Source of the DNA: Oligoflexales bacterium
GTDB taxonomy: Bacteria; Bdellovibrionota_B; Oligoflexia; Oligoflexales; JALZUQ01
NCBI GenBank assembly: GCA_023301465.1
Contig: JALZUQ010000030.1
Location: forward strand, 16,903-80,902
Direction: 5' to 3'
DNA: 64,000 nucleotides
Notes under the pieces: generated by a model
Told to the model about the DNA's origin: nothing
Databases searched by the model: none
The model's input: only the letters and a program-made list of their open reading frames with translations
Program-made: the position numbers and the translations under genes
Part shown: positions 14,761-40,677 of the stretch, one piece after another
How the letters are laid out: the number at the start of each line of letters is the position of its first letter
Position numbering within the stretch: the first letter of the stretch is position 1

Positions 14761-15849
14761 TCAACTGACATAGATTTTTTTTGCCAAATGCTCTCTAAGA
14801 TCACTATGAGAATCCATTGGGCCTAAGAAATAATCTTCTAGATAGCTGCCTGCAACTCCCGCTGCCGCTTTACCCCCATCTAATACTGCCTTATAAAGCA
14901 GTTCAGGGCGATAATCTTCAGGCTTTGCATCAAATAGCCCAAGACGATCTTGGTGTTGAAGTCGGTCTTGGTAATCAAGCCAACGCATTTCCTCCCATGG
15001 GTTTACAGTCACATGGGAGTCTGAACCTATAGAAAATTTCCCACCAAGACGCAGAAACTTCCTAAGAGGAAAGTAACCGTCTCCAAGATTTGCTTCTGTT
15101 GTGGGACATATAACGACGTGAGCGTTTTGATCGACAATCATGTGGAGTTCTTCATCACTCACATTAGTAGCATGCACTAAATGCATATTAGGGTGATCGC
15201 CCTGCTCCTCTAAAAATAGTTGGGTAGGAGGTTTACCGTAGTGTTTCACACATTCCCTAACTTCTGCTACCTGCTCTGATAAATGAATATGAAAAGGAAG
15301 GTGATGAAATGCAGATGTTATTTCTTTGACCCATTTTATGGGGCAAGCCCTTAAAGAATGAACTCCATACCCTAAACGATGGTTACCAGACTTTGGGATC
15401 AAATGAGAACATGCTTCTACGTGGTTTAGAAATTTTGTTGGAGATTCAAAATAAAAACGTTTTTGAGTCTCTTTGATCTTTTGCTCAAAACCACCTGAGT
15501 GATAAAAAACAGGAACAACTGTCATGCCAATACCTACGTCACTAGCAAGATCATATAAACATTTTACAGTGTCTAAAGGGTCATTTGTCACATGATGGAG
15601 ATAATGAAACTCAACAACGTGACCATAGCCACTTTCAAGACATTTTGTTAAAAATTTTCGGTTTATTTCTGCAAATTTATCGAGATTCATCTCAGAAACT
15701 AACCGGTACATGGAGTCACGCCAAGTCCAAAAGGAATCTGATTGGTTACTTGAGTATTCGGCTAATCCAGCCATTGCATATTGAAAACCGTGAGAGTGTG
15801 CATTGACGATACTCTCACAAAAAACTTTATTTCCAACTTGCTTTATCAC
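14761..15849 (-). CDS. formimidoylglutamate deiminase-like amidohydrolase (short form)
   Basis: NAHSHGFQYAMAGLAEY...DSFWTWRDSMY matches the HutF-type N-terminal motif. GTG start 3 nt after the feoB stop. Confidence 0.6.
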   Translation of the reverse strand: MIKQVGNKVFCESIVNAHSHGFQYAMAGLAEYSSNQSDSFWTWRDSMYRLVSEMNLDKFAEINRKFLTKCLESGYGHVVEFHYLHHVTNDPLDTVKCLYDLASDVGIGMTVVPVFYHSGGFEQKIKETQKRFYFESPTKFLNHVEACSHLIPKSGNHRLGYGVHSLRACPIKWVKEITSAFHHLPFHIHLSEQVAEVRECVKHYGKPPTQLFLEEQGDHPNMHLVHATNVSDEELHMIVDQNAHVVICPTTEANLGDGYFPLRKFLRLGGKFSIGSDSHVTVNPWEEMRWLDYQDRLQHQDRLGLFDAKPEDYRPELLYKAVLDGGKAAAGVAGSYLEDYFLGPMDSHSDLREHLAKKIYVS

Positions 15850-17953: not shown

Positions 17954-17972
17954 GAGAATGATTATCAATATT
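17954..17972 (-). promoter_or_regulatory. Fur box upstream of feoAB
   Basis: GAGAATGATTATCAATATT matches the 19-bp consensus GATAATGATAATCATTATC at 15/19 positions, 48 nt upstream of the feoA ATG. Confidence 0.55.
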
Positions 17973-18316
17973 ATTGAAGCATGTCTAAATTTATTTTAAA
18001 AGTGTAAATTCAACCTTTTACAAGAACTTGATGGGCTTAGCAGTAGCGTCAAAATGCCGCTCCATAGGCATTCCAAAGACTGGCTCCATTCCGGCCCATA
18101 TATCTTTTGGAGTGAGCATGTGACCGCCTGCTTTTGGTTTACCTGTTTTAAGGTCAACAGCTTGTGCGACATGAGCAATATACTTGTCGCCATCTTTTTT
18201 ATGACACTCTTGATTTTAGTGATCAAGGTTTTAAACGTGGGTTTGTTTTATTAAAAATGGTGGTGCTATTGACATTAAAGGCGAACAACCAATGTGGGTA
18301 AAAATCGATTAATGAA

Positions 18317-19468
18317 TCATATATGGTTCTGATCAAATTTCATCCAGAAAAATAATGGAGTTAAGATGGCAACCAGCAAAAGTGGCAAAGTAATCCATTG
18401 AACACCCCAGTAAGGAATTAAAAAACCAACACTGGAATAAACCAACATATTAATAAGACTAAGCCTAGAGTTCACAAGACCCCATACTTCTAGAGATCTT
18501 ATATCTTGTGGGATACGCGATTGAATAATCGCCCGCATGTTTCCACCAATTTTCGCCGATAACAAACCAGAGATTGCAAATACAAAGCAACTAAACCAGA
18601 ATTGTGGAAATTGATAAAACATCCCAAGCAACACCCCGTAAAGGATAAATAATTTATTAATGTATGTTTTAACTTGAAAACCTGCAGTTAAAAAAGCAAC
18701 AAGACCACCTACACCCCAAGCACCAACAACATATCCAATTTGCGACTTTGTATAAGAAGCTAAATTAAAAAGCCCAAATTCACCTGCATTAATCAAAGCC
18801 CCTAAAACTAGTACTGAATACCAAAAAAATAAACTTTTACGCAGACTAGAAGGATAAGATATTTCTTTCATAGAGTAAAATTGCTTTTTAATAATATCAG
18901 ATTCGTGATTTTTTGTAGTAAGATCTTGTTTGGTCCCTTTAAACACGAATAGAAATAGTATGGCAGCTATGCAAAATGTAACAGCATCTACAACATATAC
19001 AAATGAATAACCTAAACTAGTCGCTAAGCTAGCTCCAATAGGCGGAGCAATACACAAAATACTTGCAGACAAACTACCTGCCTTCGTTAAAACCCTATCT
19101 AATTCAGCTTTCTCAAATGATTCAGCAATGAGAGTATCTAACAATGGCTTTGCAAAAGCAGAAATGCAGCTTGCAACAAGTAAGTAGAAATATACATTCC
19201 AGAGGCTATCAGCTCGAATCAACAACAATACATTTACTGCCATAAGAAACAAACTTATTAAATATGATTTTTTTTGATGTCTTATTGGAATAGCATTAAC
19301 AGCACTTCTAGAAAGCAGTAAAGCAGGCATGCTAGAAATTAAAAATGCATAAGCTACCTTATCTGCACCAAACTTTTCGTTGACAAAAAGTGCTACCGCT
19401 AAAAATGTCATCCAACTACCGAGTGCAGAAGCAGCTCCAGCAATATAAAATAAAGTTTCTCTATACAT
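18317..19468 (-). CDS. MFS transporter
   Basis: About 11-12 hydrophobic spans. 8-nt overlap with the upstream gene. Confidence 0.7.
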   Translation of the reverse strand: MYRETLFYIAGAASALGSWMTFLAVALFVNEKFGADKVAYAFLISSMPALLLSRSAVNAIPIRHQKKSYLISLFLMAVNVLLLIRADSLWNVYFYLLVASCISAFAKPLLDTLIAESFEKAELDRVLTKAGSLSASILCIAPPIGASLATSLGYSFVYVVDAVTFCIAAILFLFVFKGTKQDLTTKNHESDIIKKQFYSMKEISYPSSLRKSLFFWYSVLVLGALINAGEFGLFNLASYTKSQIGYVVGAWGVGGLVAFLTAGFQVKTYINKLFILYGVLLGMFYQFPQFWFSCFVFAISGLLSAKIGGNMRAIIQSRIPQDIRSLEVWGLVNSRLSLINMLVYSSVGFLIPYWGVQWITLPLLLVAILTPLFFWMKFDQNHI

Positions 19469-20081
19469 TAAAGACCTGTGTATTAAAAAAGAAGTTCTGT
19501 GTTAGTCGACCATCTTGAGCCTCAAAACCAAAACCGTTTGCATGAGAATGAAATAATTTACTAGCTTTAAAAACCACACAGCGATTATACTTAAACGGTA
19601 CAGTTTTTACTACATCCCAAGCTTGATCATCCAATGTATCTGGAACAACGACCTTTTCTTCGAAATCTTTTAAATCATTGTAGCCCAACACCTTCATCCC
19701 TTCCCCGCTTGGAGGGCCATATAAACCAGTTCTTTTATGCTGATAAAGGTTTGTACCAACTTTTTTTGTATTTGGAAACGTAGATGCTAAGTAAACAACA
19801 ACCGTCCAGTCAGTCATGTCAGTATGCACTTTGAGCCTTGAAGAGCCGCCTTCGAGGATATAACGAAAGTAACCCATTTTATCACGTGATGATTCTAAGT
19901 CTATTTTTGCACCTACTATTTTTTCAAATTTTTGAATCACTGATTCTGATAAACAAGGAATTTCAGACTGAAAGCCAGGATAGTTAGGAGTAGATTTATT
20001 TTCATAATTTAAACTCAAAGCAAAATTTCTGACCTGATCTGGGTTTTGGTAAAAATCATCAATAATATATAATTCAGACAT
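19461..20081 (-). CDS. 2OG/Fe(II) oxygenase-like protein (DUF6445-like), paralog A
   Basis: IIDDFYQNPDQVR N-terminus, VHTDMTD (HxD), FHSH distal His, RLTQNFFF. Start taken at Met5. Confidence 0.55.
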   Translation of the reverse strand: MSELYIIDDFYQNPDQVRNFALSLNYENKSTPNYPGFQSEIPCLSESVIQKFEKIVGAKIDLESSRDKMGYFRYILEGGSSRLKVHTDMTDWTVVVYLASTFPNTKKVGTNLYQHKRTGLYGPPSGEGMKVLGYNDLKDFEEKVVVPDTLDDQAWDVVKTVPFKYNRCVVFKASKLFHSHANGFGFEAQDGRLTQNFFFNTQVFNV

Positions 20082-20706
20082 ATGTTTTCTCACTTAAAGC
20101 ATTAAAAAAGAAGTTTTGAGTAATACGAGCATTTTCTTTATTTGAACCAAAGAAACAATTAGAACCATGGAAATATTTTTTCCCTTTAAGAATGAGACAC
20201 CGGTTAAACTTCATTTCACAATAGTCTATAACTTCCCAAGCATCTTCAATTAATGAGTCTCTTAAAACTATGTTTGTATCAAACTCTTGTTTTGTGAGAC
20301 CAAGATCTGATAGTTCACTTCTATTAGGGTAATGATCAAGACCCGTTTCTTTATGCCGATAAAAACAAGTCCCACCCTTAGAGTGTTTGTTTAAAGATAA
20401 ATATATGACTGCTGTGTAATCCGTATTATCGGTATGTACTTGAGTTCTTCTCTTATCTTCTTCACACATAATTCTAAACCTACCAAAAGCATTATTCTTA
20501 GGTCTGCAATCAATACGTTGCCCTACAAGCATTTGAAACCTTTCAATAACTGATTGACTGTACGCACTTATCTCGCTTTCTATACCTGCGACATTATCAC
20601 TTAAAGCACCTTGTTCATGGTACTCAGTATTCAAAGAGAGATTCCTGACAAGGTGAGGCTCCTTATAAAAATCATCTATTTGAATGAACATTTTTTCTGA
20701 ATTCAT
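20074..20706 (-). CDS. 2OG/Fe(II) oxygenase-like protein (DUF6445-like), paralog B
   Basis: IDDFYKEPHLVR, VHTDNTD (HxD), YFHGS, RITQNFFF. Collinear with paralog A, roughly one third identical by eye. Confidence 0.55.
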   Translation of the reverse strand: MNSEKMFIQIDDFYKEPHLVRNLSLNTEYHEQGALSDNVAGIESEISAYSQSVIERFQMLVGQRIDCRPKNNAFGRFRIMCEEDKRRTQVHTDNTDYTAVIYLSLNKHSKGGTCFYRHKETGLDHYPNRSELSDLGLTKQEFDTNIVLRDSLIEDAWEVIDYCEMKFNRCLILKGKKYFHGSNCFFGSNKENARITQNFFFNALSEKTYV

Positions 20707-21854
20707 ACTATCTCCAGAATATTAATTTTATTATTTAAAAATTCAATTCTTTCATGATCTATTTCACTTCTAACAACAACAGAAACAAATTGAGTCAAAA
20801 AATAATCGAGCTCTGTTTTTGAAAACACAGAAAACTTTAAAATTCTATCAAAGGACCATTTTAGAAAAATCTCATCTAAATATTTATGATTCATACCGCC
20901 TATAACCACCGACAAGAAAGACAAAGCATTTTTTGACGATGATGTGATCTCAGATAAATCATTCTCATTAATAGATTCATTTTTTAAGACAGAATGCAAA
21001 TAATTATTGTTCAACATACCTGAATTATTCCAACGAGATGCAAACTCTTTATCAACTCCTTCAAAATCAGGAAGACTATCTCTTACCTTACTTATCAAAA
21101 CATTTTTTTTATATTTTATTCGATGTTTTTGAATATTTAAAACAAGTTGATCTTTTATTTTTAAATGATCAATGTTCATCAATCTAAATTGTCGATTTTT
21201 TCTTGAAGCTATCATAGTCATATTACGACGATAGGGTATATAGGAAACTTCATTCGTTATTGTTTGTAGTTTAGATGCCACAAAACTTTCTGCTACTCCA
21301 AGCTGTTCGATTGATAGCGGTGAGGCTGTAGTAAAACAATTAACTGCGACAGACCCATTAAAACTTAATACATCATTAAGTTTGGAATAGAATTTTTGGT
21401 GATTCATACACGGGGCGTACCCAGTATTTGTATACAAATCTACCCATATAAGATCATATTCAGAACGACAAGATTCAAGGAATGCTTCAGCGTCATTGTG
21501 AACAAACTCTAGACATTGAATATCTGGAAAGTAATCTTCAAAAATTTTCTTTGTTTCTAGCAAAGATTTTTTATCTGTATCTACAAGTGTTATTTTACAA
21601 GATGAATGACTAGCTAAAATTGGTCGAACACAAGCCCCTTTACCCGCACCCAAAACCAAAACTTTCAATTTATCAGCACTTGGTTTTTGAGCTAAAAGCA
21701 GACCAAATTCATCCCAATAATCACCAGTAAATACGTTAGAAGTATGCCAACATGAGTCAAAACCTCGGCTCTTTTTCTTTTGTATAGATATTTGTTGGTT
21801 TGAGTATAAAATAAAAAACCTCTTAAATAAATAAAGCAGTGGGCTTACGCCCAC
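20703..21854 (-). CDS. spermidine synthase-like class I SAM-dependent transferase with an uncharacterised C-terminal half of about 180 aa
   Basis: VLVLGAGKGACVRPIL, ITLVDTD, HNDAEAFL and YDLIWVDLY are arranged as in SpeE-type folds. The only canonical start (GTG 21854) lies inside a hairpin stem. Confidence 0.6.
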   Translation of the reverse strand: MGVSPLLYLFKRFFILYSNQQISIQKKKSRGFDSCWHTSNVFTGDYWDEFGLLLAQKPSADKLKVLVLGAGKGACVRPILASHSSCKITLVDTDKKSLLETKKIFEDYFPDIQCLEFVHNDAEAFLESCRSEYDLIWVDLYTNTGYAPCMNHQKFYSKLNDVLSFNGSVAVNCFTTASPLSIEQLGVAESFVASKLQTITNEVSYIPYRRNMTMIASRKNRQFRLMNIDHLKIKDQLVLNIQKHRIKYKKNVLISKVRDSLPDFEGVDKEFASRWNNSGMLNNNYLHSVLKNESINENDLSEITSSSKNALSFLSVVIGGMNHKYLDEIFLKWSFDRILKFSVFSKTELDYFLTQFVSVVVRSEIDHERIEFLNNKINILEIV

Positions 21855-21855
21855 T
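21825..21855 (-). terminator. GC-rich hairpin plus U-rich tract directly after the 41-aa ORF (attenuator or leaky terminator)
   Basis: Minus strand AGTGGGC-GTAA-GCCCACT (7-bp stem, GNRA loop) followed by GCTTTATTTATTT. Confidence 0.45.
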
Positions 21856-21859
21856 ATGA

Positions 21860-21985
21860 TTACTTAACCTTTAGAATTTCTTCGATTTCCTGCTGTTGTT
21901 TCGCAGAAATAGATACCGAAGGACTAGTTGGAAATTGCATGTTATTTTCAGAATGACTTACTGGATTAATGTTCTCTTTTTTCAT
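21860..21985 (-). CDS. small ORF, 41 aa (MKKENINPVSHSENNMQFPTSPSVSISAKQQQEIEEILKVK), first gene of the operon
   Basis: AAGGAGA SD 5 nt upstream of the ATG. Stop lies 5 nt before the next ORF. Below the ORF-track cutoff. Confidence 0.55.
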   Translation of the reverse strand: MKKENINPVSHSENNMQFPTSPSVSISAKQQQEIEEILKVK

Positions 21986-22368
21986 ATGATTCTCCTTGAG
22001 TTACTTATATTATTAAGTACTAATTAAATTTTTAATAAATTGAAGATAACTTTACTTTTTGAAATTAAAAACTTTAACCTCCTTTCAGAAATCACAATGA
22101 GCAAGTTCTTCAGAAAGGAGTACTTCAAGCGACATGCCAAACTGTCTTATCGAGTATTATTCGATTAAAAAACACTAAATTGACGCAAAGATTAAATGAG
22201 ATTTTTTTTTATTTACAGGCAACATATATGAAAAAAAACTCTGTTTTTATAGTGATTATGTTTAAATTAGACAAAAACTCATTTTTGAATGACAGCTATA
22301 AATGATTTAAAGGATCTTTGATTATCTGTTGCACTGCTTAATGTTTACGCCGCCATTTTAAGTAAGAT

Positions 22369-22387
22369 CGGTGTCAAAATGACACCG
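22369..22387 (-). terminator. possible terminator hairpin after the TPR/barrel operon
   Basis: Perfect CGGTGTC-N5-GACACCG stem about 60 nt past the stop of 22450..22878. The U tract is weak. Confidence 0.3.
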
Positions 22388-22449
22388 GCAAAACCAAAAG
22401 TAGACTACTCTAATTATTTTCAGACAAGTGATGTAGAATTTATGAACGT

Positions 22450-40278: not shown

Positions 40279-40677
40279 GAGAAAAAGAAGGTGAATCAGA
40301 CTGTCGCTGGTTACGTTTTTTATAAGTCGGCAACGATGATGAAGAAGCTAACGGGAGGAAAGTCCGGACTCCATAGGGAACAGTGCTAGTTAACGGCTAG
40401 GCGGGGTAACCCGACGGCAAGTGCAGCAGAAAGTAAACCGCCTGAGTACCCTCGGGTACTTCGGTAAGGGTGAAAGGGTGTGGTAAGAGCACACCAGAGG
40501 CTTGGCGACAAGTCTGCTAGGTAAACCCCACTGGGAGCAAGACCAAATAGGAATCTGCTTGATGTCTTCTCGGCAAAAAGATTCGGGTAGGTCGCATGAG
40601 TGGCGTGGCGACGCGTCACCTAGATGAATGACAGTTCTCGACAAAATCCGGCTTATAGTATTTGCCTTCTTTTTCTC
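40279..40677 (+). ncRNA. rnpB: RNase P RNA, bacterial type A
   Basis: GGAGGAAAGTCCGG, GGTAAGGGTGAAAGGGTG, AGATGAATGAC and ACAAAATCCGGCTTAT. P1 pairs 40279-40291 with 40665-40677. Confidence 0.9.

Follow-up and report, generated by a model that had tools for sequence, protein, structure and literature searches.

Layout of the cassette

We analysed a stretch of 64,000 nucleotides from Oligoflexales bacterium (assembly GCA_023301465.1, contig JALZUQ010000030.1, positions 16,903 to 80,902 of the forward strand; the whole stretch is called the window below), in which five closely packed genes begin with an open reading frame (ORF) of only 41 codons. A first-pass annotation, made from the DNA letters alone, had proposed an undescribed biosynthetic operon that makes either a peptide synthesized on ribosomes and modified after translation (RiPP) or a metallophore. 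As judged from its conservation, the 41-codon ORF is a real and widely conserved gene, and the five genes probably constitute a self-contained RiPP-type cassette in which the 41-aa product is the substrate. The features of the locus are listed below in the direction of transcription, with coordinates of the window.

21986-22449, minus strand: AT-rich upstream region, 464 nt (GC content 0.28-0.30)
22369-22387, within the AT-rich upstream region: terminator-like hairpin of the preceding gene
22079-22120, no strand assigned: inverted repeat with 12-nt arms at 22079-22090 and 22109-22120 and an 18-nt spacer (92% complementary)
21991-21997, minus strand: Shine-Dalgarno (SD) sequence AAGGAGA, 5 nt ahead of the peptide gene's ATG
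21860-21985, minus strand: putative precursor peptide gene, 41 aa (window ORF check)
21938-21952, minus strand: codons of the invariant core S12-E13-N14-N15-M16 (family motif S-x-[N/D]-N-M)
21863-21898, minus strand: C-terminal amphipathic follower segment QQQEIEEILKVK (pattern conserved across the peptide family)
21824-21856, minus strand: hairpin and T-rich tail at the junction of the peptide gene and the S-adenosylmethionine (SAM) enzyme gene (sequence)
20703-21854, minus strand: SpeE-fold SAM enzyme gene, 383 aa as annotated (window ORF check)
20074-20706, minus strand: DUF6445 oxygenase of the position-1 orthologue group (O1), 210 aa (Pfam, alignment, clades)
19461-20093, minus strand: DUF6445 oxygenase of the position-2 orthologue group (O2), 210 aa as annotated (Pfam, model, clades)
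18317-19468, minus strand: major facilitator superfamily (MFS) exporter of the DHA3/EntS-like type, 383 aa (Pfam, NCBIfam TIGR00900)

The coordinates bear out the compact arrangement of the five minus-strand genes described in the first-pass annotation: proceeding from the peptide gene to the MFS gene, the annotated ORFs are separated by a 5-nt gap and then overlap by 4, 20 and 8 nt. Two of the annotated starts probably have to be moved. The GTG start of the SAM enzyme is doubted because homologues of the 383-aa protein begin at the position of Ile15 of the window sequence (M-LYSN) and because the GTG falls inside the junction hairpin; the likelier start is ATT 21812, which is preceded by an AAGAGG motif 6 nt upstream. 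Similarly, the true start of O2 is probably ATG 20081, which would cut the overlap between O1 and O2 to 8 nt; the database gene call P0006, with 206 aa, bears on this start.

The AT-rich region preceding the peptide gene, put at about 460 bp by the first-pass annotation, measures 464 nt and should contain the promoter of the cassette. An inverted repeat that had been described there with 8-bp arms is real, and its arms are longer than claimed; lying ∼95-135 nt upstream of the peptide start, it may represent an operator or a 5′-untranslated-region stem. The SD sequence ascribed to the small ORF is present at 21997-21991. An Rfam scan revealed no family upstream of or within the cassette, and a match to BTnc231 was dismissed as chance (30 vs 80 bits needed). 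Downstream of the cassette, a 386-nt spacer separates the MFS gene from feoA, and genes for both FeoA and FeoB are recognized by Pfam and NCBIfam.

The first gene encodes a member of a conserved peptide family

A profile built from ten cassette peptides, run against 5.8 billion sequences, retrieved 44 small proteins with lengths of 38-85 aa (best E 5e-17). The 45 sequences that were compared all contain the motif S-x-[N/D]-N-M, with Ser, the second Asn and Met each present in 45/45 and the N/D position occupied by Asn in 43 and by Asp in 2. In the window peptide, which has the layout MKKENINPVSH-SENNM-QFPTSPSVSISAK-QQQEIEEILKVK, the invariant core is S12-x-N14-N15-M16. The Ser/Pro/Thr-rich stretch FPTSPSVSIS, which had been taken for the core in the first-pass annotation, turned out to be a variable linker. 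When the window sequence was excluded from the peptide hidden Markov model (HMM), this leave-one-out HMM still picked only the 41-aa ORF among the 1297 stop-to-stop segments of the window, with a score of 37.2 bits (E 1.3e-10) against 7.7 bits for the runner-up. None of the ten peptides that were scanned matched an NCBIfam family, and Pfam gave chance-level matches alone. One database entry was set aside as a clustering artefact: P0124, a 378-aa 'FAD-dependent urate hydroxylase' placed in the 90% cluster of the 48-aa peptide P0084, has no similarity to the peptide.

The peptides fall into two subfamilies. Subfamily I, with 12 members including the window peptide, is characterized by H-S-[S/E]-N-N-M-Q, and subfamily II by R-T-S-S-N-N-M-[L/M]-C-x-V-x-Y-E-P-L-P. 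Both finish in an amphipathic E-phi-x-x-[I/L]-L-x-V segment, which is presumed to be a recognition helix, its helicity being suggested by the sequence pattern. The N-terminal part, of 9-50 residues, is not conserved, and inspection of the peptides revealed neither a signal peptide nor a double-glycine-type leader. The distance from the core Met to the C-terminus is 25 aa in 32 of the 45 peptides, and in 39 of the 40 single-core peptides the motif and the C-terminus are 23-26 residues apart. Five peptides carry the core in tandem, twice in P0102, P0105, P0109 and P0112 and three times in P0120, with repeat units of 12-13 residues such as PTAHSSNNMQCG. Repeated cores are typical of RiPP precursors. 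Strong SD sequences comparable to AAGGAGA precede the peptide genes of most of the other loci checked.

The five parts recur together at independent loci

Loci were counted where relatives of the SAM enzyme or of the oxygenases could be placed on contigs with sufficient upstream sequence. The peptide, the SpeE-fold enzyme, the two DUF6445 oxygenases and the DHA3/EntS-type MFS protein recur at 11 independent loci, comprising the window and the related loci L001/L002, L003/L004, L005, L006, L008, L010, L013, L019/L020, L021 and L022-L026. Conservation of the small ORF and of the gene order, proposed earlier as a test of the operon, is borne out in this set: the short ORF is the first gene of the cassette at every locus so placed, and two orders are found. 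The order is peptide, SAM enzyme, O1, O2 and transporter in the window, L003, L008, L010 and L013, and peptide, O1, O2, transporter and SAM enzyme in L019/L020 and L022. MFS_3/MFS_1 genes were identified in the cassettes of L003, L007, L008, L010, L013, L019 and L022. The enzymes of the related loci are only 26-35% identical to those of the window, and the GC content of the loci spans 31-55%. Because O1 and O2 form two orthologous clades, their duplication must be old and both copies have been retained; the enzyme clades track the peptide subfamilies.

The surroundings of the cassette are not conserved and include genes for HSP33, a sigma-54 regulator, IS66, trypsin-like and S8 proteases, and PIN/SSB/TraG. 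At L021 (79-5682) the cassette is flanked by PIN, SSB and a TraG/type IV secretion system coupling protein, and a third DUF6445 gene lies on the opposite strand, which suggests that this cassette is carried on a mobile element. At L012 (4384-5544; Pseudobdellovibrio sp. metagenome-assembled genome (MAG) JBKBTW010000056) an orphan SpeE-fold gene stands without peptide, oxygenases or MFS gene. It shares its HSP33 ... Peptidase_M10 ... HSP20 surroundings with the full cassette of L010 and apparently represents a decayed cassette.

All carriers that have an organism name are Bdellovibrionota MAGs, assigned to Bacteriovoracaceae and to Pseudobdellovibrio, in the latter of which the SAM enzyme alone is left. 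Scans of genome and metagenome contigs with two short peptide patterns detected 2 and 3 loci, respectively, numbers that are limited by the patterns and do not amount to a census.

A hairpin follows the peptide gene

The hairpin that had been noticed after the small ORF is present and comprises seven perfect pairs, AGTGGGC/GCCCACT, enclosing a GTAA loop; it begins 3 nt past the stop codon of the peptide gene. At 8 of the 11 loci (window, L003, L006, L008, L010, L013, L019 and L022) a hairpin separates the peptide gene from the gene that follows. Its sequence differs at each locus, and all of these hairpins except that of L013 are accompanied by a T-run. L001 and L005 possess no junction hairpin, only gaps of 23-24 nt. 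The hairpin starts 3-8 nt past the stop codon in the window, L003, L006 and L008, and 16 nt past it in L010. From its sequence, the window hairpin is likely to be a leaky terminator, which would determine how much peptide mRNA is made relative to enzyme mRNA.

The position of this hairpin raises an alternative that has to be taken seriously among the rival explanations. The small ORF could encode a leader or arrest peptide that regulates in cis, in the manner of SpeFL/TnaC. A ribosome stalled at its stop codon or close to it would melt the neighbouring terminator hairpin and so switch on the three enzymes, which would run a small-molecule pathway that is polyamine-like or amino-acid-derived. 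Such a function is consistent with the 3-8-nt spacing between stop codon and hairpin at four loci, with the nearly fixed position of the motif 23-26 residues from the end of the single-core peptides, with the small ORF always being the first gene, and with an operon that pairs a polyamine-synthase-fold enzyme with a transporter. The speFL-speF-potE operon likewise pairs a polyamine-synthesis enzyme with a transporter. The tandem peptides, however, argue against an arrest function, as cores are located 28-30 and ∼40 residues from the end, an arrangement that would be senseless for a motif sensed in the ribosomal tunnel. Moreover, the hairpin is lacking in L001 and L005, and in L010, at 16 nt past the stop codon, it is situated outside the terminating ribosome. 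Inspection of the window ORF revealed no antiterminator partner for the 5′ arm of the terminator, and the last residues of the peptides form an amphipathic pattern instead of a fixed arrest sequence. On balance we consider a leader peptide distinctly unlikely.

The SAM enzyme has the spermidine synthase fold and lacks two signature residues

The best matches of the SAM enzyme in both sequence and fold are spermidine synthases. The Pfam family Spermine_synth matches residues 63-169 only of the 383-aa ORF (E 4e-10), and the scores against the corresponding NCBIfam models stay below their cut-offs, far below for every equivalog model, with 45 bits for TIGR00417 (cut-off 249.6), 43.5 for NF002010 (260) and 20 for NF037959 (40). 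A word-indexed search with 5 matches had indicated extreme rarity of the enzyme; this was overturned by an exhaustive profile search, which yielded 78 full-length representatives at E<=1e-30. The next outgroup in that search was the fused MFS/spermidine synthase of NF037959. The functional link to fused MFS/spermidine-synthase proteins drawn in the first-pass annotation holds only to this extent, that these proteins form the outgroup closest to the SAM enzyme.

Residue conservation was read from 63 representatives and is given in trimmed numbering. The SAM motifs G55, G59, D/E78 and D107-A108 are invariant or nearly so, as is a P-x-R-R-N-x-T motif, and the equivalent of the catalytic Asp that follows beta-4 and is the first D of DSSDP, D125 (D139 of the 383-aa ORF), is invariant in 63/63, embedded in D125-[L/I]-Y127. 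In spermidine synthases, the Asp of GGGDG binds the aminopropyl amine of decarboxylated SAM (dcSAM) and excludes SAM, and the second Asp of DSSDP binds the distal amine of putrescine. The first of these positions is Lys in the window (GAGKG) and Y/L/F/Q/D/R/H/S across the representatives; the second is Thr in the window and T/D/S/L/N/A across the family. Lacking two of the three signature Asp residues, the SAM enzyme is not a spermidine synthase. The earlier assignment as a spermidine-synthase-type enzyme is thus upheld for the fold and the SAM pattern and fails for the residues that define the substrate. From the residue pattern we infer a SAM-dependent N-alkyl transferase, methyl and aminoalkyl transfer not being distinguishable.

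The C-terminal half of the enzyme, previously described as unrecognisable, indeed gives no Pfam or NCBIfam match. Its ∼190 aa are without known relatives and are predicted to be all-helical at low confidence; in the model, which was computed from a 5-sequence alignment with a mean predicted local distance difference test (pLDDT) score of 64, this domain reaches a pLDDT of ∼50-65 and is unreliable.

Two DUF6445 oxygenases and a DHA3-type exporter

O1 and O2 match DUF6445 (PF20043) with E 5e-10 (40.1 bits) and E 2e-14 (54.5 bits), respectively, compared with a gathering threshold of 24 bits. Across 56-62 DUF6445 sequences, H90, D92, H182 and R196 show no variation. The AlphaFold model of O2, based on 62 sequences, has a pLDDT of 92.4 and displays a double-stranded beta-helix, for which Foldseek returned OGFOD1, PHD2, Pseudomonas P4H and BesD/HalA-D as the best PDB neighbours, followed by WelO5, HygX and AlkB. 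Of these, OGFOD1, PHD2 and Pseudomonas P4H are protein prolyl hydroxylases, and the BesD/Hal proteins are amino-acid hydroxylases and halogenases. By the predicted fold, the H-x-D...H triad and the Arg expected to bind 2-oxoglutarate (2OG), both paralogues qualify as members of the Fe(II)/2OG oxygenase superfamily. The facial triad, the Arg and the DUF6445 membership had already been read from the letters, and the Foldseek comparison that had been recommended for the oxygenases points to the same fold, with invariant residues at the predicted metal site.

More distant DUF6445 members occur in phage-like contigs beside glycosyl- and carbamoyl-transferases. One of them, at L016 (3640-4191 of a 154-kb Joint Genome Institute contig), is flanked by a glycosyltransferase and a carbamoyltransferase, with GTP cyclohydrolase I and DUF2828 nearby. 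DUF6445 equals phrog_1644, whose label 'minor coat protein' in PHROGs is probably a misannotation of a 2OG oxygenase. A role of the cassette in anti-phage defence was rejected, PADLOC having returned only a 15-bit generic 2OG match.

The last gene is an MFS transporter, as had been proposed, with matches to MFS_1 (E 2e-17) and to the DHA3 model TIGR00900 (E 1.8e-18) and a weak match to the bacillibactin exporter. The resemblance to EntS/DHA3-type exporters, together with the presence of a SpeE-fold enzyme, of free-amino-acid oxygenases of the BesD/Hal type among the structural neighbours, and of feoAB with a Fur-box-like site (16/19) 386 nt downstream, speaks for the second proposal of the first-pass annotation, a polyamine- or nicotianamine-like metallophore tied to feoAB. 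Its synthesis would proceed by aminopropyl or aminocarboxypropyl transfer to a free amine, hydroxylation and MFS export, with the small ORF as an accessory. When scored against the E. coli consensus, the best Fur-box match of the 64-kb window is this site (17954-17972, minus strand, AATATTGATAATCATTCTC), which is located ∼25-40 nt upstream of feoA, so that feoAB possesses an iron-responsive promoter distinct from the cassette. It is the sole strong Fur box, and the window scan gave no match of ≥14/19 upstream of the cassette. The adjacency to iron genes is likewise confined to the window, as neither feoAB nor any other iron gene lies beside the cassette in another locus. In addition, the dcSAM-selecting Asp and the second substrate Asp of spermidine synthases are not conserved, and domains of the CntL-type nicotianamine-synthase-like or CntM opine dehydrogenase kind, which mark opine metallophore clusters such as those for staphylopine and pseudopaline, are absent from the cassette according to Pfam and NCBIfam. 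Nor would a metallophore account for a family of 45 peptides whose core is invariant and can be repeated, and we regard it as very improbable.

A RiPP-type pathway as the favoured interpretation

The repeatable conserved core, the follower, a precursor gene that comes first, has a strong SD and is followed by a putative leaky terminator, the tailoring enzymes and the exporter together argue for a RiPP-type pathway, and it is likely that the cassette is self-contained with the 41-aa product as its substrate. The first-pass annotation had favoured the small ORF as a precursor for its SD, its hairpin and the supposed Ser/Pro/Thr-rich core; the precursor role is now strongly supported by synteny, by the peptide family and by the tandem cores.

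Starting from the observed peptide family and its invariant, repeatable core, from five parts that strictly occur together, and from the folds and the residues that bind cofactors, the pathway could operate as follows. In the 41-aa peptide, the core S-E-N-N-M would stand between a short N-terminus of variable sequence and a variable linker, behind which the C-terminal follower would act as the docking element; the peptide mRNA would be produced in excess by means of the leaky hairpin terminator behind the peptide gene. The SpeE-fold enzyme, using SAM rather than decarboxylated SAM, would place an alkyl group on a nucleophilic nitrogen within the core or beside it; the most cautious suggestion for the product is a methylated side-chain amide of Asn. 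The two anciently diverged DUF6445 oxygenases would oxidise one core position each, most simply by beta-hydroxylation of adjacent Asx residues. An unlinked protease would free a small product, which the EntS-type MFS protein would export.

Proteases are encoded near some of the cassettes, including a trypsin-like enzyme at L022 (6728-7579), a subtilisin of family S8 at L007 (4844-6193) and an M10 enzyme at L010 (8021-8677). They are possible maturation proteases, none of them conserved from locus to locus.

A more far-reaching variant of the RiPP interpretation, which we put forward tentatively and consider doubtful, is that the cassette defines a new RiPP class in which the SpeE-fold chemistry is novel for RiPPs, the two oxygenases act on the Asn-Asn pair and a small molecule is exported. 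One possibility for such chemistry would be the transfer of an aminopropyl or 3-amino-3-carboxypropyl group from SAM or dcSAM. Another would be alkylation of the invariant Met to a sulfonium, which might drive cyclisation or release the follower without a protease, much as cyanogen bromide does.

Several points weigh against the RiPP assignment. Both the product and its modifications are predicted from the genes. No RiPP recognition element (RRE) domain was detected by Pfam or NCBIfam in any cassette protein. RRE domains, which are PqqD-like, are common in RiPP clusters without being obligatory. An all-helical structure is predicted, at low confidence, for the C-terminal domain of the SAM enzyme, which therefore does not appear to be a canonical winged-helix RRE, and a peptide-docking role for this modelled domain is a guess. 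The cassette encodes no protease, no MFS gene was seen at L021, and L012 retains the SAM enzyme alone. The constant distance of 25 residues from Met to stop, combined with a hairpin 3-8 nt past the stop codon, would also fit a ribosome-arrest leader peptide. Finally, MFS exporters are unusual for peptides, so that a small final product must be assumed.

The lack of a protease in the cassette is also compatible with a peptide that is modified and left uncleaved. The product would then be a decorated small protein or bacteriocin-like peptide of 40-80 aa, or an intracellular cofactor or scaffold, and the MFS protein would confer immunity or be unrelated. Subfamily II, in which conservation extends along almost the whole peptide and is not restricted to the core, agrees with this explanation. 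The multi-core precursors, in contrast, suggest units that are excised, a DHA3-type MFS protein is kept in nearly all loci, and the peptides carry none of the signal peptides or double-glycine-type leaders looked for. An uncleaved peptide is in our view unlikely, and we retain the RiPP-type cassette with a released small product as the favoured interpretation.

Other features of the window

The spacer between the MFS gene and feoA contains a 60-codon frame on the minus strand (17996-18180, KKDGDKYIAHVAQAVDLKTGKPKAGGHMLTPKDIWAGMEPVFGMPMERHFDATAKPIKFL*), which has a stop codon but no canonical start; it is protein-like, has no Pfam match and could be either what is left of a gene or a small gene whose start is unusual. 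Four nucleotides past feoB begins a HutF-like formimidoylglutamate-deiminase ORF of 362 aa (14761-15849, minus strand). It matches model positions ∼49-380 of 455, scores under the equivalog cut-offs and may be truncated or divergent. A bacterial RNase P RNA of class A is located at 40288-40672 on the plus strand (Rfam, 298 bits).

Relation to known systems

The closest architectural precedent is the pantocin A cluster paaPABC of Pantoea, a homologue of which resides on a Vibrio maritimus plasmid (L027). Pantocin A derives from a 30-aa precursor with an internal 3-residue core between a leader and a follower, and its cluster includes a 2OG oxygenase and a transporter (PMC12250964). The likeness is one of architecture only: both systems have a tiny precursor as the first gene, a short conserved internal core, a main enzyme, a 2OG oxygenase and an exporter, and the pantocin A product is a small molecule, as proposed for the cassette. 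The parts themselves differ. In place of the ThiF-like PaaA, which has no counterpart in any cassette, there is the SpeE-fold SAM enzyme. PaaB belongs to the Pfam families 2OG-FeII_Oxy_3/4 and is not a DUF6445 protein (hhalign probability 2.5%). The pantocin A transporter is of the DMT/EamA type and the core is EEN, whereas the cassette has an MFS protein, the core S-x-N-N-M and two oxygenases.

For the Asn-Asn core, the nearest chemical precedent is found in proteusin tailoring, in which a class I SAM enzyme and hydroxylation both act on Asn. In the polytheonamide and aeronamide pathways, PoyE and AerE catalyse N-methylation of the Asn side chain, which occurs with beta-hydroxy-Asn (PMC11285071). 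This likeness lies in the chemistry, and proteusin precursors are long, with a nitrile-hydratase-like leader, whereas the cassette peptides are short. Proteusin clusters, moreover, contain radical SAM epimerases.

As regards the individual enzymes, the SAM enzyme resembles SpeE (PF01564) in its best sequence and structure matches, its SAM motifs and its catalytic Asp. It differs from SpeE in having no match to the N-terminal beta-domain, in its additional helical domain of ∼190 aa and in scores below the equivalog cut-offs. The fused proteins of NF037959 show the same pairing of an MFS and a SpeE-fold part, which in the cassette are two separate genes, the MFS protein being of the DHA3 type. 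DUF6445 is a broad family, within which the cassette members form two clades of their own.

The claim that the system is undescribed has held up, in that neither a curated family model nor an open-access paper on the peptide or the cassette was found. A 2024 review of RiPP methyltransferases makes no mention of spermidine-synthase-like enzymes or of aminopropyl or carboxypropyl transfer (PMC11285071). In the open-access literature, no paper mentions DUF6445 or PF20043, no relevant link between RiPPs and aminopropyltransferase or spermidine synthase was found, and the peptide motif strings are absent. We classify the cassette, within the RiPP-type interpretation, as a RiPP cluster in which both the set of enzymes and the family of precursors are unprecedented.

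The phylum Bdellovibrionota is largely predatory, and its secondary metabolism has hardly been explored. With a five-residue core, one to three core copies and a compact four-enzyme set, the cassette is directly testable in E. coli. If the RiPP assignment is true, it would represent a RiPP family defined by a combination of enzymes so far unreported for RiPPs, would provide the first functional context for DUF6445, and would offer a handle on the fused MFS/spermidine-synthase proteins.

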